Positions 1 through 13,056 of a stretch of DNA of 13,056 nt are shown piece by piece (the stretch's first letter is position 1; each line of letters starts with the position of its first letter). The DNA comes from Myxococcota bacterium. GTDB taxonomy: Bacteria; Myxococcota; XYA12-FULL-58-9; JALHOP01. The notes below the pieces were generated by a model that was not told where the DNA came from, made no database searches, and saw nothing but the letters and a program-made list of their open reading frames with translations. Made by a program: the position numbers and the translations under genes. The DNA is taken from NCBI GenBank assembly GCA_041288095.1, contig JBGGMJ010000016.1, positions 1 through 13,056 of the forward strand, written 5' to 3'.

Positions 1-387
1 AAGAGGGTTCGTGTCAATCCCGCGCTCGCCGATGTTCCGCCCGGAACGGTAACGGCCCAGCTGTCCTACGACGCTGACGAGCGTCCCCGTGGCGTGAGTG
101 GTTGCGACTCCCCGAACAAATGCGGAGCGCCGAGCCAGCCACGCTTCGAGGTGGCCATGGCCCCGGACGGCGACCCGTATGCAAACTTCCAGGTAGTCAT
201 GCGCGACGCCGACAGCGGTGAGGAACGACGCGTCTTGGCCAGCGGAGAGCCTGACCGAGAGGGCGTCGTGCATTTGCAGCTGGCCGATTGGATGGATGGC
301 GCACGAGGATGCATCATGCTGGCCGGCGTCGGCTGGGGCGGCGCCGTCGGCCCAGCGCTCGACCTCGGCTGTATTCGCCGACAGTAG
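1..387 (+). CDS. Hypothetical protein, C-terminal part (5' end outside window)
   Basis: The frame of ORF 94..387 is open from base 1 (KRVRVNPALADVPPGTVTAQLSYDADERPRGVSGCDSPNKCG...) to TAG at 385-387, 36 bp before miaB on the same strand. Four Cys; no family recognised. Confidence 0.6.
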   Translation, partial: KRVRVNPALADVPPGTVTAQLSYDADERPRGVSGCDSPNKCGAPSQPRFEVAMAPDGDPYANFQVVMRDADSGEERRVLASGEPDREGVVHLQLADWMDGARGCIMLAGVGWGGAVGPALDLGCIRRQ

Positions 388-423
388 ACAGTCCAGGCGC
401 AAAAACGCTATCCGGCCGCACGG

Positions 424-1911
424 ATGTCGCGCCAGGTCTACATCGAAACCTACGGCTGCCAGATGAACGAGCTCGACTCCGAGCTCGTGCAGGGCCAGCT
501 CGAGGCGCTGGGCTACGGCTTCACCGCCAAAGCGGACGAGGCCGACGTCGTGTTGCTCAACACCTGCTCGGTGCGCGAGCACAGTGAGCACAAGGTCTGG
601 TCGTACCTGGGGCGTCTCGGGCAGGCCAAGCGCGAGCAGGGCCGTGAGGTCGTCGTCGGTGTCCTCGGGTGCATGGCCGAGCGCGAGGCCGGCAACATCT
701 TCACGCGCATGCCGCACGTCGACTTGGTGTGCGGGCCATCGATGCTCGACAAGCTGCCGTCGCTCCTCGACAACGTCGTGCAGTCCAAGTCGCGCCAGTC
801 CGCGTTGACGGGCCATACAGCCAGGCGCAGCGCGACGCTCGACGCGGCCATGGACGGCATCGAGGCGATGGACCTGTCGCGCGCTTTCTCACCATACGCC
901 AACGACCGCGAAAGCGGAATCCAGAAGCGTCAGGCCTACGTGCGTATCACCCGCGGCTGCAACAAGTTCTGCAGCTTCTGCGTCGTGCCATATACACGCG
1001 GGCCCGAGGTCCACCGCCCCGCTCAGCACATCATCGACGAGGTGAAACGGCTCGTCGACGCGGGCGTGCTCGAAGTCACGCTCATCGGTCAAACGATCAA
1101 CCACTATCACCACGAAGGCACGAGCTTCGCGCAGCTCCTTTATCGCGTTCACGAGGAAGTCCCCGACCTCGCGCGTCTGCGCTTTCTCACCTCGTATCCG
1201 CGCGATTTCACGGACGAGGCTCTCGACGTCATGGCGGCGTGTGACCGCATCGCCAAGTACCTGCACGTGCCCGCGCAGAGCGGCTCCGACCGCATGCTCA
1301 AGCTCATGAATCGCGGCTACACCGTCGGTGAGTACATGGACTTGCTCGATCGCGCTCGGGCGCGCATGCCCAGCGTCCGCCTCGCCGGCGACATGATCGT
1401 CGGCTTTCCTACCGAGACCGATGAGGACCACCTCATGTCGCTGCAGCTCCTCGAGCGTGCACGCTACAAGAGCTGCTACGCCTTCAAGTACTCGCCGCGC
1501 CCCGGCACGGTTTCATCGCGCCGCTACGAAGACGATGTGCCGGACGAGGTCAAGCGCGCTCGAAACCAAAGCATGCTCGAGGTGCTGACCAGCACGAGCA
1601 TCGCGAACAACCAATCGCGCGTCGGTCAGGTGCTCGACGTCATCGTCGAGAGCGAGACCAGATTGCGCCGCGAGAGCGCGCCCATCGATGGTGTCGTCGT
1701 CGGTTGGGCCAAGAAGGAATCTGTCCGACTGATCGGACGCACCGACGGTGACGAGATCGTCGCTTTCGACGGTCCCCGCTCACTCCTCGGTAGCATGACC
1801 AAGGTGCGCGCTTTGTCCGCTACGGCGGTCACGATTCTCGGCGAGCACGTAGGCCAGCGCCAGCAAAAGGCCCACCACGGCGCAACCCCACCACAGGTAG
1901 AGGGGCCCTAG
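424..1911 (+). CDS. miaB: tRNA-2-methylthio-N6-dimethylallyladenosine synthase (radical SAM methylthiotransferase)
   Basis: N-terminal MTTase/UPF0004 cysteine motifs ETYGCQMN, NTCSVRE and LGCMA. Radical SAM CxxxCxxC motif RGCNKFCSFCVVPYTRG (Cys codons 958-981). Also HVPAQSGSD, DMIVGFPTET, FKYSPRPGT, and a C-terminal TRAM domain (LIGRT...ILGE). Confidence 0.96.
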   Translation: MSRQVYIETYGCQMNELDSELVQGQLEALGYGFTAKADEADVVLLNTCSVREHSEHKVWSYLGRLGQAKREQGREVVVGVLGCMAEREAGNIFTRMPHVDLVCGPSMLDKLPSLLDNVVQSKSRQSALTGHTARRSATLDAAMDGIEAMDLSRAFSPYANDRESGIQKRQAYVRITRGCNKFCSFCVVPYTRGPEVHRPAQHIIDEVKRLVDAGVLEVTLIGQTINHYHHEGTSFAQLLYRVHEEVPDLARLRFLTSYPRDFTDEALDVMAACDRIAKYLHVPAQSGSDRMLKLMNRGYTVGEYMDLLDRARARMPSVRLAGDMIVGFPTETDEDHLMSLQLLERARYKSCYAFKYSPRPGTVSSRRYEDDVPDEVKRARNQSMLEVLTSTSIANNQSRVGQVLDVIVESETRLRRESAPIDGVVVGWAKKESVRLIGRTDGDEIVAFDGPRSLLGSMTKVRALSATAVTILGEHVGQRQQKAHHGATPPQVEGP

Positions 1912-2994
1912 TCGCTGGTAGACGAGCGTGCCCACGAACGGCGCCACGAGTCGGCCGCCGGCGTGAGCAGCGAAGGTCATGCCCATGTAGCGTCCGGTCT
2001 CGCCGGGTGGCGCCGCTTTGGCGACGTGCGTGTTCAACGCCGGAAAGATCACCAGCTCGCCAAGGGTGAAGATGGTCATCGCGGTGACCGCCATGGCGTA
2101 CTCTGACGTGAACGGCAGCAGCAGGTAACCGCCCGCGAAGCCGACGAGCCCACCGGCGATGACTCGGAGCGTCGGCATGCTCGCGAGCCGCGCCGCCGCC
2201 GGGACCTGCGAGAAGGTGATGATCAGCGTGTTCACCACGACGAGGAGCCCAATCCGTCGTTCGGAGAAGCCGTTGACCACGTTGTGGTAGAGCGGGGCGG
2301 TCGTGAACATCTGGATCAAGAGCGCCGAGACGACGACCTGTCCACCGATGAGCAGCGCGACACCCGAGGGGCGACGCGCTTCGCTCTTTTCCCTCGCTGC
2401 GCGCGGGGCGGCTGTTCCTTCTTTCACGTAGAGTAGGGTGAGCACGGCGCCGGCGAACGCAGCCGCGGCATCGACGTAGAAGAGCGCCGGGTAGGAGATC
2501 GCGGCGAGGAAGCCGCCGACGCCCGCGCCGATACTCACGCCGAGATTCACCGCCAGCTGCATCAACCCGAACGCGCGCCCCATGTCCTCGGGCCGCGCCG
2601 CACCCGCCAGCGCCGCCGTGTTGGCCGGCCGCACCGCTTCACCAAACGCCGCGAGCACGAACATCGCCACCATGAGCCAGTCGACGTCCGGGATGCGGCT
2701 GATGAGCACGAAGCCTATGGCGTTGCTGGTGAGGCTCGCCACCATGATGCGCTTGGGGCCGAGCCTGTCGACCAGGGCGCCGCCGGCGATGACACCGACG
2801 ACGGCTCCGGCACCGTGCGCCGTGAGCACGCGGCCCACGGTCTCGACATCGGCCCCGAGGTGATTGCTTACGTAGAGGCTCAGGAAGGTGATCACCATCG
2901 AGCCGACGCGGTTCACCAAGCAGACGACCGCGAGGATCCACACGCGCGGCGGCAGGCCGCGGTAGGTCGATAGATAACCTTCGAGCCAGCTCAC
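1780..2994 (-). CDS. Major facilitator superfamily transporter (DHA1/MdtH-like; substrate unknown)
   Basis: 404 aa with about 12 hydrophobic segments. MFS motif A (GALVDRLGPKR) and motif-C-like NLGVSIGAGVGG. GTG start overlaps the upstream TGA (GTGA, 2991-2994). Confidence 0.92.
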   Translation of the reverse strand: MSWLEGYLSTYRGLPPRVWILAVVCLVNRVGSMVITFLSLYVSNHLGADVETVGRVLTAHGAGAVVGVIAGGALVDRLGPKRIMVASLTSNAIGFVLISRIPDVDWLMVAMFVLAAFGEAVRPANTAALAGAARPEDMGRAFGLMQLAVNLGVSIGAGVGGFLAAISYPALFYVDAAAAFAGAVLTLLYVKEGTAAPRAAREKSEARRPSGVALLIGGQVVVSALLIQMFTTAPLYHNVVNGFSERRIGLLVVVNTLIITFSQVPAAARLASMPTLRVIAGGLVGFAGGYLLLPFTSEYAMAVTAMTIFTLGELVIFPALNTHVAKAAPPGETGRYMGMTFAAHAGGRLVAPFVGTLVYQRLGPLYLWWGCAVVGLLLALAYVLAENRDRRSGQSAHLGHATEE

Positions 2995-3704
2995 TCGAGA
3001 TCGAAGATCACCGACACGCTCGCGCTGATGGTGATCTGACCCGGCGCGAAGCCCTCGGTGCCTTCTCCGCCCGGGCCGGCGCTCTGCATCACGTTCTGCG
3101 ACATCGGACCGTTGTTGCCGCGGTGACTCCAGTAATAGCCGCCGCCGCCACCTTCGCTGATGCTCGAAACCTTCCCGACCTTCATGCCGAGCTCGCCAGC
3201 CATGGCCACCGCCTTTTCGCGCGCCGCCTTCAAGGCCATGGCGCGGGCGTGGTCGCGATGTTTGCGCAGCTCGCTCGAGCGGAAATCGATGCCGTCGACC
3301 TTGTTGACGCCGGCTTCGAGCAGCGCGGTGACCACCGCCTCGAAGCGCTTCACGTCACGCAAGGTGATGGCGACGCTGCGGCGTACGCTATAGCCGTCAG
3401 GCTGAGCGAGGCGTGTGTGGCCGTAGCTCGAGCTCTCGAAGATCGGCTCCATGCTCATGTTGTCCGTCTGGATGTCCTTGGCCTCGATACCGAGCTTGGC
3501 CGCGGTAGCGAGCGTCTTCTTCAGACGCTCGTCGTTCACGTCCTTGGCCTTGGCGATCGCCTTCTCCCAGGACTCGACGGCGAGCAGGAGCTGCACGGTG
3601 TCGGGCGCGACGCGAACGTCGGCGCTGCCGGAAACCGAGATGCTTCGGGGCGATGGTTGCATGGGCGCGGCTCCGATGAGTGCCAGAGTGAGGAGGATGG
3701 ACAT
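2991..3704 (-). CDS. SIMPL / DUF541 domain periplasmic protein (YggE/BP26-like)
   Basis: Hydrophobic signal-like N-terminus. Typical SIMPL motifs ISVSGSADVRVAPD, GVNKVDGIDF, ARAMALKAAREKAVAMAGELGMKVGKVSSISE and C-terminal PGQITISASVSVIFDL. Confidence 0.9.
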   Translation of the reverse strand: MSILLTLALIGAAPMQPSPRSISVSGSADVRVAPDTVQLLLAVESWEKAIAKAKDVNDERLKKTLATAAKLGIEAKDIQTDNMSMEPIFESSSYGHTRLAQPDGYSVRRSVAITLRDVKRFEAVVTALLEAGVNKVDGIDFRSSELRKHRDHARAMALKAAREKAVAMAGELGMKVGKVSSISEGGGGGYYWSHRGNNGPMSQNVMQSAGPGGEGTEGFAPGQITISASVSVIFDLE

Positions 3705-3728
3705 GGTTTTGGGTTATAACGGGTGACC
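3705..3728. promoter_or_regulatory. Putative bidirectional promoter core (palindrome GTTATAAC, 3713-3720)
   Basis: AT-rich patch between divergent genes only 18-24 bp apart. TATAAC reads on both strands. There is no clear Shine-Dalgarno sequence for either gene. The hexamer lacks the conserved final T of TATAAT. Confidence 0.45.
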
Positions 3729-4049
3729 GTGTACGACTGCCAACGTTGTGGTGCTTGCTGCACCAACACCACCGCCAACGAGAGCGAAGGCTACCGCGAC
3801 TATGTCGCCGTCGAGCCTGGGGACGGCATCCGTAAGCGCAAAGACCTGATGAAGCGCTTCGTCATCTTGAACAACGAGGGCGAGGCGCACCTGAAGCTCG
3901 ATGCCGAGGGCCGCTGCGCGGCGCTACGGGGGGCGCTGGGACGAAAGGTCTGGTGTGTCATCTACGCCGACCGCCCCAGCCCCTGCCGCCGGGTCGAAGC
4001 CGGCAGCAAGCTCTGTCTGACGTACCGTCGTGACAAGGGCATCGATTGA
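3729..4049 (+). CDS. YkgJ-family cysteine cluster protein (CxxCxxCC; putative Zn or Fe-S binding)
   Basis: DCQRCGACC at the N-terminus, GRCAAL, then CVIYADRPSPCR. The start is GTG at 3723 or 3729; 3729 is preferred because it is symmetric with the divergent start (see findings). Confidence 0.88.
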   Translation: MYDCQRCGACCTNTTANESEGYRDYVAVEPGDGIRKRKDLMKRFVILNNEGEAHLKLDAEGRCAALRGALGRKVWCVIYADRPSPCRRVEAGSKLCLTYRRDKGID

Positions 4050-4085
4050 CGGTGCCGCGTACGCAACTTCCTCGAAGCGGCACCG
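4050..4085 (+). repeat. 9-bp perfect inverted repeat (stem-loop) immediately after the YkgJ-like stop codon
   Basis: CGGTGCCGC (4050-4058) and GCGGCACCG (4077-4085) with an 18-nt loop. No U-tract follows, so it is not a canonical intrinsic terminator. Confidence 0.6.
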
Positions 4086-4089
4086 ATAA
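4063..4089 (+). promoter_or_regulatory. Putative sigma-28 (FliA/WhiG-type) promoter
   Basis: GCAACTTC-N11-ACCGATAA compared with the consensus TAAAGTTT-N11-GCCGATAA: -10 matches 7/8, -35 matches 4/8, spacing exact. Confidence 0.4.
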
Positions 4090-4238
4090 GGTGGACATCA
4101 GAAAGAGCTTTCGGGCTCCCTATCCTTCGAATCGTCCGCTGTAGCGGTGGCACCCACTGCTCGCGGATCAGCGCACTATTTCCGGAACCATCTCATTTTT
4201 CGAACGATACGATGCTTCGCCCCGCCGCGGAGACATCG

Positions 4239-5411
4239 ATGCAACCAGTTCGTGACGTTCCTCCTGGTCGTTCTCTTCTTCCTGGCCTCCCGTCTTCGGT
4301 GCCCCCGAAGCCGTCGTTCGTCGACAGTCAGTCGACGCAGCTAAACTTTGCCTCCGGTGGGCAGGCTGTCGATCAAGCCTCGTTCGACAAAGCCATGGCC
4401 GAGAAGGACAAGGGTCGTTGGTGGCGTCCGCTCGTCGCCATGGCCGCCGCCGGCGCCGCTGGTGTCGGTGTCGCGCTCGGCATCGGCGCATTGGCTCCCG
4501 CTCTCAGCCCGCTCGTCGTGAGCGGCGCGACCGCCGTCGCCGGCGCGGGTACCTACTTCCTCGCGCAGAAGCTCCTGCAGCCCAAGAGCACGCTGCCCCC
4601 GGCTACCAGTCAGGAAGAGTTCGACAAGGCGCAAGCCGCGAAGAACACCAAGGCGTGGTGGAAGTCCGGAGTGCTCGCCCTGGGCGCCCTCCTGGCGACC
4701 GGCGCGCTCGGCATCGGCGTCGACATGGGTCTCAAGGCGCTGCTCTCCCCGACCATGGCGTCGACGATTCAAACCGCGATCAGCCCGGCACTCTGGGGCT
4801 TCACGAACGCTATCGCGGGCGCTGTCACCTTCTTGTTCATTCAGAAAGTGACCGAGCCGGTCGGCGCCTTCATCTCGCGCTGGTCCGCCAAGGGCAGCCC
4901 GATTCAGTCGACCCACACGCCCGAGATCTTCAAGTCGTTCATCGACATCAACGAAGGCGCGAACGCGGTCAACTCGCTCGCTCTCTCGGGTGCCATTTCG
5001 GTCAACTCGTTGAAGAATCAGCTGCAAGACACGATTCGCGATGCGCGCTTGTTCATCGATTCCGCGAGCCTGTCGTGGGACGCCGACGAAGCAGCGGCGA
5101 AGATCAAGCAGGCAGGCTCGATGCTCGGCCGCACGCTGATCGCCACCGAGACCTTGAACTTCAGCGTCACGCCGGACTTCCCGGGTGTCATGAAGCTGCT
5201 GCACGAGGCGCTCGGCGCGTACTTCGAGGACCTACCCGAAGCGACGCGTAACGAGTTGATCGCCGCGGCCATCGAGGCTGTCAAAGCGCGTCGTCCGGCG
5301 CCGGCCGATCCGCGCATCCCAACCACAGAGGCGGCCATCAAGGCCTACTACTTGCCGATGCTCGAAGGCGTCATCAACGGCAAGGTGGCGGTGCAGAATG
5401 TTTCGCACTGA
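4239..5411 (+). CDS. Uncharacterised membrane-associated protein A (390 aa; two tandem Gly/Ala-rich hairpin repeats plus a helical domain)
   Basis: Long ORF with GC3-rich codon usage. ATG 4239 has GGAG at 4229-4232 (6-nt spacing), so it is preferred over ATG 4212. Internal repeat present, and the protein resembles the downstream one. Confidence 0.85.
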   Translation: MQPVRDVPPGRSLLPGLPSSVPPKPSFVDSQSTQLNFASGGQAVDQASFDKAMAEKDKGRWWRPLVAMAAAGAAGVGVALGIGALAPALSPLVVSGATAVAGAGTYFLAQKLLQPKSTLPPATSQEEFDKAQAAKNTKAWWKSGVLALGALLATGALGIGVDMGLKALLSPTMASTIQTAISPALWGFTNAIAGAVTFLFIQKVTEPVGAFISRWSAKGSPIQSTHTPEIFKSFIDINEGANAVNSLALSGAISVNSLKNQLQDTIRDARLFIDSASLSWDADEAAAKIKQAGSMLGRTLIATETLNFSVTPDFPGVMKLLHEALGAYFEDLPEATRNELIAAAIEAVKARRPAPADPRIPTTEAAIKAYYLPMLEGVINGKVAVQNVSH

Positions 5412-7152
5412 TTTCATCAACTCGCACGGCTTGCCGGCCCTCGAAGGTCTGGCGCCCGGTGCGGTAACCGTTGCCGACCCCGGGACGCCGCAGCAGGGCC
5501 AGGGCAAGGTTCCGATCGCCGACGTCGCCGCGGCGAACAAGTCGCGCTGGATCTCGGCGGGTCTGTACGTCGCTGGCGGAGTCGTGGGCGGTCTCGCCCG
5601 ACTCGGCCTGCGCCAATGGATTCCCAACTACTCGAGCGCCGCGACGCCGCTGGTCAACATCGGCACGCAGATCGCGATGTCGCCCGGCCAACAGGCGATC
5701 CAGCTGATCACCACGCCGATCAGCGTGCTGGCTTACAAGTGGGTCTACGGTGGCAAGCAGGAGGGCGAGCCGAAACAAGTTCGCGCCATCGACCCGGCCT
5801 ACGAGGGTGACCTCGTGCGCGTCTACATCAAGCGCAGCCGGCTCGACACCTGGGTCGCCGGGCCCGTGTCGGACTTCGGCACGTACCTGCAGGTCACGAA
5901 GAATAGCTGCCAGGTCGTTTCGAAGCGTCTGCAAGCCAACGACATCGACGGTGCCGCGCGTGTCCTCGCCTCGGCGCTGTTCTACGACCGCCAGCTCTGG
6001 GCGCAGCACCAGCCGGAAGGTGCGACCGCGTACGAGCTGATGTTCATCGACTTGCACTCCTACTTCGAGGGTCTCTCCCCAGCCGCGATCGCGGACTTGA
6101 AGAAGGCGACCATCGCCGAAGCTCTTCGGCTCGACGCGGGCAAGGACAAGGGTCTCGAGAAGTACGTCGGGATCATGGTCGACGGGCTCACCTCGGACAA
6201 ACCGCCGCAGGCTTTGCAGCAGCCGTGGGGCGACGAGGCAGCGGCGCTGGCGATCTCGGATCACACCCAGAAGGACGCCGGGACCTGGGCCAAGGAGCTC
6301 ATCGATGAAGCGCTCGACAAGACGCTTCGCGGTAAGGGCTGGCAGGAGCAGATGCAGATCAAGAAGGACTTCAACAAAGCGTTGAAGACCGTCGTCAAGG
6401 ATCTGCAGGAGCTCGAGACGGGCACGGGTCGGCTCGCCACCCCGGACGAGCTCTGGCGCTTGATGAACAGCGCCATGGCCAAGGACGCCGGCAAGAGCCT
6501 CGAGCTCAAAGCGGCGCTCATCTCGGTCGGCGTGTTCGTGCTGCTCTCCGGCGGCGCGACGTTCGCGTACGCGAAAGCGTTACCCTTGGTGCCTGGTTGG
6601 TCGCAGGCCGGCTTCGGCCAGATCATCCCAACGGTCATCAGCTACCTGACGATCACGGCGCGTTTTGGTCTCGAGAAGTTCATCGCCTTCGGCCGCGCGC
6701 TCGGTTGGGCGGGCACCTCTCGCGCGACGCTCGGCAAGACGGTGGACCGCGACTTCCGTAACATGCGCGTGCGCACCGCCATGGTGGACCGCCGCGTGAC
6801 CTCGTGGTTGTCGCTGTTCAGCAACTTCACCGGTGGCCTGCAGAAGTACGCGATCGACGCGGCGGCCTTGGTTCAGAAAGGCAAGATCGACCAGGCGGCG
6901 GGTCTCCTCGCCGGCATGCAGAAGATGGCACACCAGTCGTTCTTCTACTTCTGGCCCTTCACCAAGCTGATGCACCGGGTGTTCGAGCGTATCGGCCCGA
7001 ACTTCGACGGCATCACCAAGGCGCAGCGTGACGAGCTCGCGACCAAGGTGCTGGCGCGCCTCGAGGCGATGGGCACCGACAAGGGCACCATGGCGACGTA
7101 TCACAAGCCGTTCATCGAAGGCTTGTTGGGCCGTAACGTCAGAGTGGTCTAG
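5398..7152 (+). CDS. Uncharacterised membrane-associated protein B (584 aa; two copies of the module shared with protein A)
   Basis: Long ORF with GC3-rich codon usage. It overlaps the end of gene A by 14 bp, with SD-like AAGGTGG at 5382-5388. Hydrophobic segments at about aa 51-117 and 372-437. Confidence 0.87.
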   Translation: MFRTDFINSHGLPALEGLAPGAVTVADPGTPQQGQGKVPIADVAAANKSRWISAGLYVAGGVVGGLARLGLRQWIPNYSSAATPLVNIGTQIAMSPGQQAIQLITTPISVLAYKWVYGGKQEGEPKQVRAIDPAYEGDLVRVYIKRSRLDTWVAGPVSDFGTYLQVTKNSCQVVSKRLQANDIDGAARVLASALFYDRQLWAQHQPEGATAYELMFIDLHSYFEGLSPAAIADLKKATIAEALRLDAGKDKGLEKYVGIMVDGLTSDKPPQALQQPWGDEAAALAISDHTQKDAGTWAKELIDEALDKTLRGKGWQEQMQIKKDFNKALKTVVKDLQELETGTGRLATPDELWRLMNSAMAKDAGKSLELKAALISVGVFVLLSGGATFAYAKALPLVPGWSQAGFGQIIPTVISYLTITARFGLEKFIAFGRALGWAGTSRATLGKTVDRDFRNMRVRTAMVDRRVTSWLSLFSNFTGGLQKYAIDAAALVQKGKIDQAAGLLAGMQKMAHQSFFYFWPFTKLMHRVFERIGPNFDGITKAQRDELATKVLARLEAMGTDKGTMATYHKPFIEGLLGRNVRVV

Positions 7153-7171
7153 CTCACGCGGCGGCAGCGGG

Positions 7172-9514
7172 TCACTCGACCCGCTCCACCAAGAGCTGCT
7201 GACTATCCGCGCGTCCGTTATCGTCGACGGCGCGCACGACGAAGTTGCCGGGGTGGGCCTGCCACAAGAAGGTCTCCCCGGCACTCGCGTGTCCGACATA
7301 GCGATCGTCGACGAACCAGCGTAGATCGCGGGCGTCGGCGCCGGTGACCGCCGCGAACGGCACCACCGCCGAGCGCGGGTCGTCGATGCGCAAGCTGTAG
7401 GTCAGCACCGACTGCGGAGAGGTGATCCGCGGGGGCTTTCCCGTGCTGCTCATATCGTCGAGCTTGCAGCGAGCAGCGTATCTCGGTGGCAGGCGGCGAC
7501 GGAGTCCGGCGCGCTCGAAGACGCGCGCGATGTTGCTCGGCCACAGCTCGTAAACCTCGAGATGTCGGCCCGCCGTGACCTCTTCGCCGGGACAGGCGCG
7601 CTCACCCGTGGCGTCGTCGACGACGACCCGCGCGTGCACGTCACACGTGGCGATCGGCGAGACCCCCGCGATGAAGGCGGTGCGCTGGGTACGCGGGCAG
7701 TGCTCGCCCGGCACCATGCCCGAGACGGCGCAGACCTCGCCGTGCTGAATGGTCGCGAGGCGCGCCGGCGCCTGGTGCTCGATGCCCGGTCGCAGCGCGT
7801 CGATGATCTCGAAGGCCAGTGGCGCGGCGGCGGTGCGACCAACGAAAGCGGGATTGCCGTGGCCGTCGAAGTTCCCGACCCAGACCGCCAAAACGTACTG
7901 ACCCGCCACCGCCACGGTCCACGCGTCGCGGAAACCGTAGGACGTGCCGGTCTTCCACGCGACCTCGACGCGGTCGCGCACCGGCGCGAACGGTGATGCA
8001 TTCGGACGCTCCTGGCCTCGCAGCATGGCCATGGTCAGCTCGGCCGCCTCGGGGCTCGTGAGCCGGTCGCCTTTGACGGACGCGCCGTCCATCTGATCGC
8101 GGAGGCCGCGCATGACGCCGTCGTTGGCGAGCGCCGCGTACATGACGACGAGGTCGCGCATGGTCACCTCGGCGCTGCCCAGGACGTACGACAGACCATA
8201 GCGCTCCCTGCTTGCGGCCGTGACGATGCCCATCCGCGCGAGGAGATCGAACATGCTCGCGCCTTCCTCGCGGCGCAGGCGTGACTCGAGATCCACCGCC
8301 GGCAGGTTGCGGCTACGCACCAGCGCATCGGTGGCGTTGATCGGCCCCACGAAGGTGCCGTCGAAGTTCTCGGGCTCGTAGATACCGTAGCGCGCGGGCG
8401 CATCCTCGAGGACCGTGCGTGGGTGAATCAGACCGCGCTCGAGCGCCAGCGCGTAGATCATCGGTTTCAATGTCGAGCCCGGCGAGCGGGGGGATCGCGT
8501 GCCGTCGACCTGGCCGGCGATCGTGTCGTCCGTGAATGACGCCGAGCCAATGCTCGCGAGAACCTCCATGCCGCGGCGATCCACGAGCATCGCGGCGGCA
8601 TTCGTGAGACCGCGATCACGACCGCGCTCGACCCAACCGGTGACGCGGCGCTCGAGCAGATCTTGCAGCCCTCGGTCGATGGTCGTGCGAATCTGCCCGG
8701 CCACCGGGCCCGCGACCTTGCCACGCCGCGCCAGCACGCCATCGCATACATGGGGCGCCGCGAAAGGGAGCTCCGAGCGTGGCCGCACCGCCAAGTCCGC
8801 TCCAGCGGCCAACACCTCGGCGTCATCCTCGGGTACCTGCTCGCGCCATCGCTCGATGAGGCGTTGACGCGCGGCACGCATGTCGGTGGGCGTGAGACCG
8901 TCCTTGGTGGGTGCGCGGCGGTTCGGGCTTTGCGGCATGACTGCGAGCGCCATGCTCTCGGCGCGCGACAGCTCACGCGCGGTCTTCCCGAAATACACCA
9001 GGCTCGCGGCGCCGATGCCTTCGACGTTGCCGCCATACGGCGCGAGGTTCAGGTACGCTTCGAGAATTTCTCGCTTGCCGTAGAACAGCTCGAGTTGCAG
9101 CGCGCGCAACATCTGCAGGAGCTTTCCGCTGATCGTGGTCGTCACCAGACCGTAGCGCAAGCGCGCGACCTGCATGGTGATGGTCGAAGCACCACGGCGC
9201 GGCGCTCCGCCGGCGGCGTCGAAAATGGCGTGAGCGAGCGCGACCGGGTTCACGCCGGGATGCCGGTAGAACCAGTGGTCTTCGTAGAGGAGCGTCGCTT
9301 CCACGAGCTCCGGTGCCACCTCGTCGAGCGTCGTGTAGACGCGGTAGCGCTCGTCCGCGGCGAGCGCGAGGCGCATGAGCTTGCCATCACGGTCGGTGAC
9401 GGCGACACCGAAGCTCACGTCGTCGAGCAACGGCGGTTTTCCCGCGATGAAGAGCGCCGCCGCCGCGACGCCACAGGTCGCGGCGATTGCTCGCCACAAC
9501 CCGCGCGATTTCAC
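7172..9514 (-). CDS. pbpC: Penicillin-binding protein 1C (bifunctional transglycosylase/transpeptidase)
   Basis: N-terminal membrane anchor. GT51 motifs EDHWFYRHPGVNP, GASTITMQVAR and KREILEAYLNLAPYGGN. Transpeptidase motifs SxxK (STLK, 8465-8476), SRN and KTGTS. BiPBP_C-like C-terminus. GTGA overlap with the alpha-2-macroglobulin gene, which is the classic context for this gene. Confidence 0.95.
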   Translation of the reverse strand: MKSRGLWRAIAATCGVAAAALFIAGKPPLLDDVSFGVAVTDRDGKLMRLALAADERYRVYTTLDEVAPELVEATLLYEDHWFYRHPGVNPVALAHAIFDAAGGAPRRGASTITMQVARLRYGLVTTTISGKLLQMLRALQLELFYGKREILEAYLNLAPYGGNVEGIGAASLVYFGKTARELSRAESMALAVMPQSPNRRAPTKDGLTPTDMRAARQRLIERWREQVPEDDAEVLAAGADLAVRPRSELPFAAPHVCDGVLARRGKVAGPVAGQIRTTIDRGLQDLLERRVTGWVERGRDRGLTNAAAMLVDRRGMEVLASIGSASFTDDTIAGQVDGTRSPRSPGSTLKPMIYALALERGLIHPRTVLEDAPARYGIYEPENFDGTFVGPINATDALVRSRNLPAVDLESRLRREEGASMFDLLARMGIVTAASRERYGLSYVLGSAEVTMRDLVVMYAALANDGVMRGLRDQMDGASVKGDRLTSPEAAELTMAMLRGQERPNASPFAPVRDRVEVAWKTGTSYGFRDAWTVAVAGQYVLAVWVGNFDGHGNPAFVGRTAAAPLAFEIIDALRPGIEHQAPARLATIQHGEVCAVSGMVPGEHCPRTQRTAFIAGVSPIATCDVHARVVVDDATGERACPGEEVTAGRHLEVYELWPSNIARVFERAGLRRRLPPRYAARCKLDDMSSTGKPPRITSPQSVLTYSLRIDDPRSAVVPFAAVTGADARDLRWFVDDRYVGHASAGETFLWQAHPGNFVVRAVDDNGRADSQQLLVERVE

Positions 9515-12500
9515 TTACCGACCACCGTGATGGCGGCACGGGCAGAGCTTCCGCGCACGTCCGGCGCATACATGGCGGCGGCGTGCGTCGGCGGCACCAC
9601 GAACGCTCCGCGCGTGGTGGCTCGCAGACGATAGATCACCTCTTTGACGTCCTTCGTGAGGTCGCCGTAGAAGACCGCGCGGTCTTCGCGTGCGTCGATG
9701 TACTCCGGCTGCCAGGTGCTGCTCGCTGCAAGCACCCGACCGCCGTCACCGTCGAGCACGAGATCGAAGCCCGCCGGCAAGAGCTCGACCACCGCCACGT
9801 CGTGCACGGTCTCGGTCACGGCCCGCATTTTCACGTGGACGCTCACGGTGTCGCCAATGGCGACCTCGCCCATGGTCTTGCCCTTGTCGTCTTCGTAGGA
9901 GCGGATGATCTCGATCCCATGCGTCTCGGCGGCGGTCGCGGGCTCGCGATCGAAGCCGGACACCGTCACCGCGTAGAAGAGGGGAAGGTCCGCGTCGTTG
10001 CTGATGTGAAGCGTCTTGGTGTCGAGGCTTACTTCGCCCGTCGGGAAGGCCGTGCCGTGCAACGCCAGGTTCTGCTTCTTGCCGTCGTCGGTCGTCGCCG
10101 CGACGGTCGCTTTGGCCGCGACGTTCTTCGCCGCGTCCGAGCGCGCATACGCCGCTAAAGCATACAGCGTCCACGCCGAGCCGATGGTGTTGGCGCGCCC
10201 GCCGCCGGCGCTGCCCACCATGCGCTCGATGAGCTTCTTGTCGAAGTCACCCAAGCGCTCCGGAAAGTGCATGACCAACACGTAGAAGAGCTGCGCCGCG
10301 TAGGTTTGCTCGTTGTAGAAGGTGCCCGCGTCACCCGGCACGTCGCGCGCCATCTCGGCGAGACGAATGAGACTCGAGGCCTCGCTTTCATCACGCGCCA
10401 GCCGATACGCGGCCGCGAGGAATGCCACGGTGATGTCGCTCTTCCAGGCGCCGCCTTGATCCTTACGGAGGAAGTCGCGCAGCTCCGCGAGCTCACGCGC
10501 CGACTGCTCGCCGGAGCGGGCCAAGAGGTAGACCGCGAAAGCACGCAAGCGAGCGGACGGCATCCCGGCCAGCGGCCGCCGTGCGAGCTCGCGCGCATTG
10601 GCCAGCGCTCTCTTCTTGAGCTCCGCCGCCACCGGCAAACCGCGCTCGGTGGTTTCGATCAAGAAGTGCGTGGCGTAGAGCGATGCGTAATCCGAGACAC
10701 GCGACGAGGCGGTCCAGTAGCCGAACGAGCCGTCGTCGTTTTGTCGCGACTGCAAGACGTCGAGCGCGTTCTCTACCGCGGGTTTCGTTTGTTTGGTCTT
10801 GCTGGCGAGCTCCGGGAACTGGCGCAAGAGCAAGCTCGGCACGGCGGCGCTCACCACCTGCTCGGTGCACAGGTGTGGGAAATTCTCGACGTAGGTTTGG
10901 AGGCTCCGCGCCAGCGCCAGCGGCGCCGATGACACGGTGACCTCGTGCTTGGCGTACTCGGGCAAGAGCCGTCGTGTGAGCGCGACGTCGACGCCGCCGG
11001 ACGCGACGATACCCGAGAGTACCTGACTCGCGAACGCGCTCGCCGGCCGTACGCTGGTGTCGGTCGTGAGCGTCGCCGAGGCGCTGCCGCTGCGCGCCGT
11101 CAGCTTCAGCGAGGTCGATCCGAGCTTGGTCGTGCCCTGCAGCTTGAAACGTACCGCGCCCTCGCGACCCTCCGCGATGGTCAACGTCTGCGACACGTCG
11201 CCGAGCACCTTCACGCCGTCAGCCGCCTGCAAGGTGACGTCGACCTTCGCGTCTTTGCCCGAGCCCTCGACGTTGTTGGCAACGGCGACGCTCATTTCGG
11301 CGGTGTCACCCGGGGCGATGAACAGCGGTGCGTTCGGAGAGATGACGAACGGACCCCGCACCGTGGTCTTCTTTTGTGCCACCCCGACCGCATCGGGCGC
11401 GAGCGCCGCGGCCATCACCCGCATGGTGCCGTTGAAGGTGTCCGGCACTTGATAGGTGAAGGTCTTGGTCTCGGGACCCGCGTCGATGATCCCCGACCAG
11501 AACGCCACGGGCGCGTCGTGCTTGCGGCGGAATGGGTTCAAGTTCTTGCTAGCGCCGCCGTCGCCGTCACCGCCCTGTTTCATGAGGGCCGCGACGACGT
11601 GATGCTCGGGCAGGATGAGGTCGAGGATCTGCTTGGTGCGCACCTCCAGCGCCCGCTTCTCGAAGAAGAACGCGAGTGGATTCGGCGTCTCGTAGTGCGC
11701 CACTTGCAGGATACCCTCGTCGACTCCCCAGACCACCATCTTCGTCGGCCGGTCGGCGCTATAGCGGACATTGAGCTTGTCACCGGGCTTGACGAGCTCG
11801 GGGCTCTCGAGCTGAATGGCGACGGTGCGCGCTTTCTGGCTCACGGAGAAGCCGACGACGCCGTACGACAGCGGGCTCATGAAGATCTCGGGCGACGCCG
11901 AAGCGCGTGTGAAGGCGACGCTTACGTAGCCGTTGCCCTCGATGCCCGGCGGCAGGTCGATGGTCTGGACGGTTGCGTTGGTGCCGGTCTTGAACCACTT
12001 GTGCGCGTAGACCTTGTCGCGCTCGATGGTGATGAGGCCGCTGCCCGCATACGGTGCCTTGATGGCAACGCTTACCGGCTCGCCCGCGGCGTAGTCCCGT
12101 TTGTCGAGCACGAGCTCGAGCTCGGCGTTGCGCTCGACGCTGCGCGACAGGTTGGCTTCGCCTTGAACACTGTAGCGGACACGTGAGACCTCGAGGTCGC
12201 GCTTGTCGCGGATCGAGACGATGAAGGTACCGGGCTCGCTGGTGTCGAGCTTCAGGCGGGTGCCGGCGGACTTGATCGCGAGCTTCTCTTCGCCGCGCGT
12301 GATCTCCTTGCGGACCGATTGGTAGGCGAACGAGCCGTTGTTCTGACGCTGCAGCACCGACACGTAGCGTTCTTCCACGCGCACCGCGCGCAGCTCGTCG
12401 ACGTCGACCGCCTTGACGCTCTTGTCGACGGCCATGAAGCGCACGCCGACCTCGCCGTCCTTCTTCACGAACGACAAGTCACCTTCGCGCTTCACACCCA

Positions 12501-13056
12501 CGAAATACGGCCGTGGCGAGACCAGCGCTCGCGCGGAGCCGGAGACGCCGCGCCCACCATCGAGCTCGAAGCCGGTGGCGTAGACCGACACCGTGTACGA
12601 GCTGCCCGCGAAACGCTTGAGGTCGAGCGCGAAGGCGCAGCGACCTTCACCGTCGGTCGTGCACTCCGAGAGCGACTCCTCGTAGCTCTCGTCGGCCGCG
12701 GCGGGATCGGTGAAGGCGTAGTCCTTGAACGCCCCGAAGTGGATCGCCTGAGGCGACAGATACATGGTCGCGGCCACGCGGTGGTCCGCCGCGGCGGTGC
12801 CGAAGAGATTGTACAGACCGACGTGCGCCGACAGATCCTCGGGTGTCATCCAGCCGCCGAGCTTGCCGTCGCCGATGCGGGTCTCGATGCGCAAGCGATC
12901 GGGGAGGAACTCCTCGACGCGCACGCTGACGCTACCGAGGAGCGAATTCCCCTTCTTGTCGTTCACGATGTACGCGTTCACGGTGTAGTCGCCGGTCGGC
13001 GCGGTTTCGAAGGTCGTGTATGCCAGCTCGATGAAGCCGCTCGCCGGCAGCGCCAG
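9511..13056 (-). CDS. yfhM: Bacterial alpha-2-macroglobulin (YfhM-like), 5' end outside window
   Basis: The frame is open to the window edge (LALPASGFIELAYTTFETAPTGDYTVNAY...). Motifs VEEFLPDRL, VDEGILQ and PDTFNGTMRVMA, thioester motif CTEQ (10858-10869), RQNDDGSFGYW, and a C-terminal receptor-binding-like domain (VELLPAGF, DAREDR, AMYAP). Confidence 0.95.
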   Translation of the reverse strand: MALPASGFIELAYTTFETAPTGDYTVNAYIVNDKKGNSLLGSVSVRVEEFLPDRLRIETRIGDGKLGGWMTPEDLSAHVGLYNLFGTAAADHRVAATMYLSPQAIHFGAFKDYAFTDPAAADESYEESLSECTTDGEGRCAFALDLKRFAGSSYTVSVYATGFELDGGRGVSGSARALVSPRPYFVGVKREGDLSFVKKDGEVGVRFMAVDKSVKAVDVDELRAVRVEERYVSVLQRQNNGSFAYQSVRKEITRGEEKLAIKSAGTRLKLDTSEPGTFIVSIRDKRDLEVSRVRYSVQGEANLSRSVERNAELELVLDKRDYAAGEPVSVAIKAPYAGSGLITIERDKVYAHKWFKTGTNATVQTIDLPPGIEGNGYVSVAFTRASASPEIFMSPLSYGVVGFSVSQKARTVAIQLESPELVKPGDKLNVRYSADRPTKMVVWGVDEGILQVAHYETPNPLAFFFEKRALEVRTKQILDLILPEHHVVAALMKQGGDGDGGASKNLNPFRRKHDAPVAFWSGIIDAGPETKTFTYQVPDTFNGTMRVMAAALAPDAVGVAQKKTTVRGPFVISPNAPLFIAPGDTAEMSVAVANNVEGSGKDAKVDVTLQAADGVKVLGDVSQTLTIAEGREGAVRFKLQGTTKLGSTSLKLTARSGSASATLTTDTSVRPASAFASQVLSGIVASGGVDVALTRRLLPEYAKHEVTVSSAPLALARSLQTYVENFPHLCTEQVVSAAVPSLLLRQFPELASKTKQTKPAVENALDVLQSRQNDDGSFGYWTASSRVSDYASLYATHFLIETTERGLPVAAELKKRALANARELARRPLAGMPSARLRAFAVYLLARSGEQSARELAELRDFLRKDQGGAWKSDITVAFLAAAYRLARDESEASSLIRLAEMARDVPGDAGTFYNEQTYAAQLFYVLVMHFPERLGDFDKKLIERMVGSAGGGRANTIGSAWTLYALAAYARSDAAKNVAAKATVAATTDDGKKQNLALHGTAFPTGEVSLDTKTLHISNDADLPLFYAVTVSGFDREPATAAETHGIEIIRSYEDDKGKTMGEVAIGDTVSVHVKMRAVTETVHDVAVVELLPAGFDLVLDGDGGRVLAASSTWQPEYIDAREDRAVFYGDLTKDVKEVIYRLRATTRGAFVVPPTHAAAMYAPDVRGSSARAAITVVGK

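Follow-up and report, generated by a model that had tools for sequence, protein, structure and literature searches.

A genus-restricted myxobacterial gene pair built from three copies of a hairpin-and-bundle module, behind a promoter motif resembling the sigma-28 class

The subunits of YaxAB/XaxAB, and those of Hbl and Nhe of the ClyA superfamily, carry a hydrophobic hairpin-like element and are believed to hetero-oligomerise on a membrane. In the chlamydial Inc proteins, which are lineage-specific with many paralogues and are linked to a type III system, a helical domain follows a two-lobed hydrophobic hairpin. Translocators of type III secretion systems (T3SS) carry PxLxxP as an N-terminal class II chaperone-binding motif, according to PMC4536800. 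For the myxobacteria, a T3SS* is described without homologues of needle and translocon components in a review of Myxococcus predation (PMC10849154) and, likewise, without known needle or translocon homologues (PMC12075869), and no description of substrates of the myxobacterial type-III-like system was found in the passages of PMC10849154 consulted. In this study we analyzed a stretch of 13,056 nucleotides (the window) from an uncultured soil myxobacterium of the Myxococcota (assembly GCA_041288095.1, contig JBGGMJ010000016.1, positions 1 to 13,056) and describe within it two overlapping genes, A and B, which together hold three copies of one module. Three of the four A-B pairs in the genome are preceded by a common promoter motif, and we weigh here where such a pair might act.

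Three copies of one module

Gene A (4239-5411, forward strand) encodes 390 amino acids (aa) and gene B (5398-7152, forward strand, from the open reading frame [ORF] list and its translation) encodes 584 aa, the two overlapping by 14 nt. Residues of A are numbered here from ATG 4212, which opens the longest ORF (399 aa). A shared module of ~230 residues occurs once in A (copy 1, 4614-5396, aa 135-395, a hairpin and a five-helix bundle delimited by hhalign, alignment and AlphaFold2 [AF2]) and twice in B, as B1 (5509-6213, aa 38-272, with a polar second hairpin arm) and B2 (6451-7149, aa 352-584), both delimited by hhalign. All three copies lie on the forward strand, as does the helical linker which separates the two modules of B (6214-6450, aa 273-351) and was recognized from the AF2 secondary structure.

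Pairwise BLASTP of A against B was not significant (best E 0.79), so the similarity among the modules cannot be demonstrated from the window sequences alone and homologues are needed. Profile comparisons with hhalign gave 95.1% probability (E 3.2e-8) for the whole A family against the whole B family. Sub-alignments restricted to orthologues gave 96.0% for the A module against B1 (E 4.1e-9), 94.7% for the A module against B2 (E 6.1e-8) and 88.1% for B1 against B2 (E 3.1e-6). With paralogues included (12 A-type rows and 16 B-type rows per half) the corresponding values were 99.8% (E 3.5e-29), 99.7% (E 3.3e-27) and 99.1% (E 7.4e-19), while six controls with one partner reversed reached a probability of ≤1.0% with E ≥0.057. 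These comparisons bear out the paralogy of the three segments which a preliminary description of this DNA had proposed from a manual alignment, and the six ordered blocks it had listed are all present in the translations of 4212-5411 and 5398-7152 and could be aligned across 43 module copies.

In the 43-copy alignment the first hairpin arm has a conserved Ser and Gly, and a Pro at the hairpin turn and another at the hairpin end are followed by D-x-R. Further along there is a g-D-x3-A-A-x2-L block with a Pro 23 residues beyond it, and the C-terminal part contains L-x-P-x-F, R-x2-L and a terminal Y-x2-P-x3-G-L. Invariant positions are mainly Pro, Gly, Ala, Leu, Phe, Tyr and Asp/Arg pairs, among which no catalytic motif is apparent, in agreement with the preliminary description. 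Additionally, A of the window carries an extra Gly/Ala-rich helical hairpin (4380-4586, forward strand, aa 57-125 in the 4212 numbering), a partial fourth copy which matched the hidden Markov model (HMM) of the module at E 1.8e-4 in the window and at 3.3e-4, 0.011 and 1.2 in three orthologues. This hairpin is confined to the window's orthologue group, with none in the A paralogues P0027-P0029.

The statement that the proteins belong to no recognised family also held in searches of Pfam, NCBIfam, PADLOC, PHROGs, PDB sequences and fold libraries. Neither A nor B matched Pfam or NCBIfam above cut-off (top match FlaF, E 0.021, 15.3 bits against a cut-off of 23.6), none of eight family proteins matched a PADLOC model at E ≤1, and PHROGs yielded no significant match (best E 0.008). 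Profile searches of the PDB gave a best E of 0.31 for B (FliL) and nothing for A, and Foldseek returned nothing at E ≤0.001 for either model against the PDB or for B against BFVD. AF2 with shallow family alignments produced all-helical models with a mean predicted local distance difference test score (pLDDT) of 47 for A and 50 for B, and was confident only in the helical bundles (A 265-390, pLDDT 72-85; B 160-270, 76-94; B 470-580, 81-93). Conceptual literature searches found no paper covering the A-B proteins; a description under another name may exist. Since none of the tools used assigned it to any described family or fold, the hairpin with its five-helix bundle is a new building block.

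Selection and distribution of the gene pair

A and B are real genes under purifying selection. Ratios of nonsynonymous to synonymous substitution rates (dN/dS) against orthologues were 0.19 and 0.32 for A and 0.12, 0.24 and 0.23 for B, compared with 0.09 and 0.10 for the neighboring pbpC and miaB-like gene. The B2 hairpin, with a dN/dS of 0.02-0.09, is the most constrained segment of B; the linker (aa 273-351) gave 0.23-0.32, and only the N-terminus was less constrained.

The A-B family is restricted to one genus, and the genome to which the window belongs (5.85 Mb, 212 contigs, 90% complete; hereafter the source genome) carries three more A-B pairs, four in total. A word-indexed search of 5.8 billion clusters returned seven B-type and six A-type clusters, the query's own among them, and an exhaustive HMMER search of 1.84 billion representative proteins with the B profile returned 13 matches at E ≤0.001; named relatives are metagenome-assembled genomes (MAGs) labelled Myxococcota or "uncultured Bdellovibrionales". 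In the class, surveyed as one order of 22 species genomes, the family was found in four of the four genomes of a single genus, with three to four B genes each, and in none of the other 18 genomes. Across 401 genomes sampled evenly from the phylum there was one further match, and it was marginal (E 8.5e-4, 17.9 bits). In metagenome contigs, 0 stretches matched a degenerate DNA pattern written for the GPxFDG...AQR(D/E)E block, and two soil-metagenome runs from one study contained more than half of the words sampled from the A-B locus.

The preliminary description had proposed a coupled two-gene unit, and this proved correct for every locus available: a gene with two modules comes directly after a gene with one in 13 of 13 loci (four from the source genome, six from three sister genomes, three from named MAG records), with the genes overlapping by 11-20 nt across the four pairs of the source genome. 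Searching that genome with the A profile recovered exactly 12 module copies, four in A genes and eight in B genes (two each), and no solo copy outside the A-B pairs. The proteins of the two other promoter-bearing pairs are only 25-34% identical to those of the window.

The neighborhoods of the four pairs are mutually unrelated and have no third gene in common, the flanking orphans being without similarity to each other or to the module (all-against-all BLASTP and module HMM). One paralogous pair, for example, is followed on the same strand by orphan ORFs of 217 and 207 aa (locus L012, 7175-8471; contig C182 of the source genome, reverse strand), which abut rplJ/rplA and likewise lack similarity to the module. 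Synteny with pbpC and the macroglobulin gene, the neighbors of the window's pair, is preserved at the loci of three other MAGs.

Among public records, a B-type gene is apparently split into P0021 (283 aa, B1 only) and P0020 (312 aa, B2 only) on one contig; the contigs of the two split pairs are 54,312 and 45,248 bp long. In the other public assembly, P0023 and P0024 comprise a 442-aa protein whose C-terminal third seems to be out of frame and a 218-aa B2 fragment. These may be either natural splits or frameshifts or assembly errors.

Promoter motif, sigma factor and export apparatus

Upstream of A the window holds a bipartite promoter-like site (4179-4210, forward strand) composed of TTTCCGGAACC (4179-4189), a spacer of 15 nt and CGATAC (4205-4210), the latter preceded by AA at the -10 box. 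The same two boxes stand upstream of A in two other paralogous pairs of the source genome. By orthologue group the motif was found in four of four loci (OG1), two of two (OG2), four of four (OG3) and none of three (OG4), so that in 10 of the 13 loci the boxes are conserved while the spacer sequences vary. Across the source genome a generalised pattern located 24 sites at spacers of 15-19 nt (13 at 16 and nine at 17), a generous count because the pattern was widened after the genome-wide hits had been seen. The spacing contrast is independent of that widening: eight other 5-nt spacer bins gave 0-3 sites each, the reversed pattern 0 and swapped boxes 1. The motif is thus both conserved among loci and enriched genome-wide at its spacing.

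The base preceding CGATA, which lies outside the search pattern, was C in 17 of 22 sites, and GC preceded it in 10 of 22 (by eye). The resulting class consensus, GCCGATA(A/C), resembles the sigma-28 -10 consensus, GCCGATAA, given in PMC2859248. A scan for sigma-70 promoters between 3650 and 7400 found none, and a candidate sigma-54 promoter at 4147-4165 was rejected for its wrong GG-to-GC spacing (by eye).

The position of the -10 box also bears on the start of A. ATG 4212 lies 1 nt past this box and lacks a ribosome site. A GGAG Shine-Dalgarno-like element (4229-4232, forward strand, seen directly in the sequence) stands 6 nt upstream of ATG 4239 and is also present in loci L001, L002 and L003, and the public protein record P0009 (390 aa) begins at M10 of the 4212 form, which is ATG 4239. 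Because the -10 box ends 1 nt before ATG 4212, we place the true start most likely at ATG 4239. For B, an AAGGTGG ribosome-binding site (5382-5388, forward strand, seen in the sequence) lies within the 3' end of A, 9 nt before ATG 5398.

The source genome contains one FHIPEP gene, and its contig C92 encodes FliP, a YscJ/FliF-type ring protein, a FliM/FliN protein and an ATPase with a T3SS ATPase C-terminal domain. Families of flagellin and of the rod and hook, and TssC of the type VI secretion system (T6SS), were not found in this 90% complete genome, and are for that reason to be taken as not found rather than as proven absent. Most of the order's 22 genomes have two full-length FHIPEP copies; with its single copy and 90% completeness, the source genome may be missing a second export system from its assembly.

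C92 also encodes a sigma factor of 294 aa whose best PDB matches are FliA/sigma-28 (E 6.4e-27). It belongs to a four-gene operon at 35188-38090 (L047 15188-18090, reverse strand) with a 185-aa orphan, a 138-aa TPR protein and a 159-aa orphan. The TPR protein was considered as a class II chaperone and set aside, matching generic TPR structures only. A site of the promoter class, TTTCACAACCC...CGATAA, precedes the operon and is kept in both sister genomes in which the region is assembled. This FliA-like sigma factor would govern the promoter class, an assignment made solely through the motif before its operon because its 164 bits fall below the NCBIfam FliA/WhiG cut-off (189.6) and another sigma factor reaches 166.

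Downstream of the other sites, 14 of 20 ORFs had no Pfam family at E ≤0.001 and two more had only sub-threshold matches, the remaining four being a SpoU methylase, an FAD monooxygenase, a PHB depolymerase and a lysyl-tRNA synthetase-like gene. None of these 20 ORFs, a few of which are visibly spurious picks, has a hydrophobic N-terminus. Two large orphans of the regulon (1045 aa and 610 aa) were found in the same genus only, in four of 22 genomes each, and have paralogues there. The 294-aa sigma factor was found in 20 of the 22 genomes of the order and FHIPEP in 22 of 22; a conserved regulator and machine therefore stand alongside genus-specific target genes. About 20 further sites of the class are scattered over the genome, for example at C197:46375, C156:9872, C136:1677, C43:24774 and C211:13802.

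The window has a G+C content of ~65%, without a compositional break. Upstream of the pair lie a MiaB-like radical-SAM gene (424-1911, forward), an MFS transporter (1780-2994, reverse) and a SIMPL-family gene (2991-3704, reverse) and a small CxxCxxCC gene (3723-4049, forward). Downstream, pbpC (7172-9514, reverse) is convergent with B and is followed by an alpha-2-macroglobulin gene (9511-13056, reverse). The pbpC product has transglycosylase, transpeptidase and PBP C-terminal domains and the next gene encodes a bacterial alpha-2-macroglobulin, and the stretch from 7172 to 13056 represents the known PbpC-macroglobulin gene pairing. Between the convergent B and pbpC the sequence contains a GC-rich stem-loop with an 8-bp stem, AGCGGGTC ACTC GACCCGCT (7166-7185), which may act as a two-way terminator and was not listed by the terminator scan because it has no T run. 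The related MAG locus L002 has an additional ORF of 769 aa between B and pbpC (9825-12134, reverse) which has no counterpart in the window.

Readings of the pair and comparison with known systems

We put first the reading that A and B form a membrane-anchored hetero-complex of the producer within a sigma-28-type programme, and give it about an even chance of being right. A and B would be paralogous subunits, one A and one B together giving three modules, in each of which a five-helix bundle comes after a Gly/Ala-rich helical hairpin. Of the hairpins, those of A and B2 would most likely lie in the cytoplasmic membrane of the producer with both ends inside, and the helical bundles, together with the degenerate B1 hairpin, on its cytoplasmic face. 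With the ribosome site of B inside A, the two proteins could be translated in fixed proportion from a single mRNA, transcribed from a sigma-28-type promoter. This promoter would join three of the four pairs of the source genome to a regulon of mostly genus-specific proteins under the FliA-like sigma factor, whose gene shares its contig with a type-III-secretion-like export apparatus that lacks a flagellum, and the complex might work with that apparatus as a lineage-specific membrane accessory or as cargo. The common core, a three-module hetero-unit with hairpin anchors that is co-regulated with a sigma-28-like programme, is well supported; the membrane location, the topology, the binding of A to B, the choice of sigma factor and the work with the export apparatus we infer.

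Hydropathy (Kyte-Doolittle, 19-residue window, threshold 1.6) peaks at 2.03 in the extra hairpin of A, 1.87 in its module hairpin and 1.99 in B2, and at only 1.31 in B1, with the first arms passing 1.6 only at the peak. Over the 43 modules, mean first-arm hydrophobicity was 1.24-1.38 and the first arm carries 0.7-0.8 charged residues, while the second arm averaged 1.16 in A and 1.03 in B2. Lys and Arg together average 2.6-3.5 in the 15 residues before the hairpin, 1.4-2.1 after it and 0.7-1.3 in its loop of 10-19 residues, a pattern which fits the positive-inside rule for an in-out-in hairpin but leaves the final location unsettled because exported hairpin proteins look alike. We favor a resident inner-membrane complex because such features nearly always mean that, and because the charge distribution fits. 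The membrane insertion assumed in the preliminary description is accordingly plausible as far as three segments with peaks above 1.6 are concerned, and does not extend with the same assurance to the mean arms or to B1.

As to whether A and B bind each other, co-folding of B with A 130-399 (family alignments) gave scores of 0.46, 0.57 and 0.47 (median 0.47), which the tool grades as weak support, in a band where most predictions are wrong except for pairs already likely to bind; three controls scored 0.00. In these runs the pLDDT of the partner was at least 73 and contacts agreed across runs to at least 61%. The hetero-oligomerisation proposed earlier thus gains something from the co-folding contrast, the 11-20 nt overlaps and the A-then-B order in 13 of 13 loci, and as a modelled interaction it stays tentative.

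Several observations weigh against the resident complex, among them the score band of the co-folding just given. In all paralogues the B1 hairpin has a polar second arm (mean 0.00) and the other mean arm values, at 1.0-1.4, are under the usual 1.6, so that stable membrane spanning is not assured; furthermore, AF2 gave a pLDDT below 50 for all hairpins. None of the four pairs in the source genome has a secretion gene as a neighbor. On the side of transcription, the fourth pair type lacks the motif in all three of its loci, the count of 24 sites is somewhat inflated by the widening of the pattern, the window's own -10 is AACGATAC and not GCCGATAA, and the -35 box is unlike that of E. coli sigma-28, TAAAGTTT, as given in PMC2859248. 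To these must be added the sub-cut-off score of the 294-aa sigma factor beside a rival one, the incompleteness of the genome behind the lack of flagellin, rod proteins and TssC, and the sequencing runs, in which no RNA run was listed for the A-B locus.

The alternative that survives best, although we consider it unlikely, is that A and B are an exported pair which is soluble in the producer, leaves through the needle-less type-III-like apparatus or another route and inserts its hairpins in a target (prey) membrane, the three-module hetero-oligomer being translocon-like or pore-forming cargo. No N-terminal signal-like segment was found in A or B, the hairpins are only moderately hydrophobic, and the N-termini are Pro-rich and poorly conserved. 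The N-terminus of A contains an LPGLP motif (4278-4292, forward strand) in which P24 and P27 are invariant in the A alignment; LPG[LF] occurs in 7 of 11 A-type N-termini, a figure matched by 0 of 2000 shuffles and counting as three independent paralogue groups because the sequences are related, and the looser LPx[LFM] in 8 of 11 A-type and 7 of 14 B-type N-termini. The family is genus-restricted and multi-copy while FHIPEP and the FliA-like sigma factor are nearly universal in the order (22/22 and 20/22), and the promoter class stands mostly before orphans that have no signal-like N-terminus (14 of 20 without Pfam family), the two tested being likewise confined to the genus (4/22 genomes each). 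The description of the myxobacterial T3SS* as devoid of needle and translocon homologues (PMC10849154) also favors this reading. In the ESM Atlas the nearest neighbors of B were type III effector and chaperone clusters (HopW, HopAU1 and CesT, at 0.76-0.77; the A module reached 0.75), but these scores are under the level attained by shuffled proteins one-third of the time, and so below noise.

As an exported translocon the pair falls short of the translocators at two points, because PxLxxP occurs at chance level and a TPR chaperone gene is missing beside it. Within the first 45 residues P.L..P was found in 2 of 11 A-type sequences (shuffle mean 0.97; reached by 516 of 2000 shuffles) and in 0 of 14 B-type sequences, and no TPR family was found among the neighbors of the four A-B pairs, unlike the cognate class II chaperone of translocators; the TPR protein of the sigma operon matches only generic structures. 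Export is further opposed by flanking charges that follow the positive-inside rule like those of ordinary inner-membrane proteins and by purifying selection near that of the housekeeping neighbors, and secretion by the apparatus of the source genome is itself only a prediction. Moreover, sigma-28 regulons of flagellated bacteria include resident membrane proteins too. The more specific proposal that A-B is the missing, membrane-inserting cargo of the myxobacterial type III apparatus, needle-less and derived from the flagellum, and is made under the FliA-like sigma factor, exported on contact and forming a three-module pore or docking platform in the target membrane, we regard as quite unlikely.

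A third possibility, which we judge improbable, is that A and B are soluble cytoplasmic helical proteins that serve as a scaffold or regulator and have their hairpins buried in a larger helical assembly. The mean arm values, the polar second arm of B1, the all-helical models and the absence of catalytic-looking invariant residues would all suit such proteins, but three segments exceed 1.6 with peaks of ~2.0, the first arms carry only 0.7-0.8 charged residues, and constraint within B is strongest in the B2 hairpin, as for a lipid-embedded or tightly packed element. A defence or toxin pair that damages membranes on its own, in the manner of abortive infection or of a bacteriocin and with no relation to the type-III-like apparatus, is highly improbable, since lineage-specific, multi-copy genes with hydrophobic hairpins in unrelated neighborhoods are offset by 0 of 8 matches to PADLOC, a best PHROG E of 0.008, a locus syntenic in three other MAGs, a co-regulation motif common to ~20 other genes, and surroundings of the pair in the window that lack small immunity-like genes, genes of mobile elements and any anomaly of composition.

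In returning to the membrane-anchored hetero-complex, we note that ~20 mostly genus-specific genes, three of the four A-B pairs included, stand behind a sigma-28-like promoter class in a non-flagellated myxobacterium. The promoter motif and the short list of candidates make the question of the substrates of the export apparatus directly testable. If the cargo reading were true, the other genus-specific proteins of the regulon would provide the first set of candidate effectors for a system of this kind; should the pair prove to be a normal inner-membrane complex, it remains a clear example of a membrane protein family that is lineage-specific and internally triplicated.

Set beside the described systems, the likeness to pore-formers and translocators drawn in the preliminary description stands for architecture only, with no fold match found and with PxLxxP at chance level. 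Like YaxAB/XaxAB and Hbl/Nhe, A and B are related helical subunits encoded side by side. Unlike these alpha-pore-formers they have no Pfam or PDB sequence match, and B carries two modules; no ClyA-type structure was among the fold matches listed, for models whose hairpins are poor (pLDDT <50). Hbl and Nhe also have a signal peptide, which A and B lack. The Inc proteins share with A-B a hydrophobic hairpin with a helical domain, and lineage-specific paralogues without wider homology. They differ in belonging to obligate intracellular pathogens, in inserting in the host vacuole membrane, and in having neither a three-module repeat nor an obligate gene pair, and homology was not detected.

The T3SS translocator pairs (YopB/YopD, IpaB/IpaC, CopB/CopD) resemble A-B in being two adjacent, co-expressed genes (A directly before B in 13 of 13 loci) whose helical products have hydrophobic helices, no signal peptide and a conserved short Pro/Leu motif near the N-terminus, and are thought to form a hetero-oligomer in the membrane. 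The promoter class suggests, in addition, that A-B may be co-regulated with a type-III-like apparatus. The two translocator partners are not paralogous to each other, unlike A and B, for which the searches, with models whose hairpins are poor, gave no sequence or fold match to them and which occur as four pairs in the source genome. Finally, the sigma-28 (FliA) late-gene regulon of flagellated bacteria differs from that of the source genome, in which flagellin and rod/hook genes were not found, the -35 box is different and the target genes are mostly genus-specific proteins without assigned function. The two regulons are alike in a -10 box resembling GCCGATAA (PMC2859248) and in a FliA-like sigma factor which, in the source genome, shares its contig with type III export genes and has the motif of the class before its own operon.

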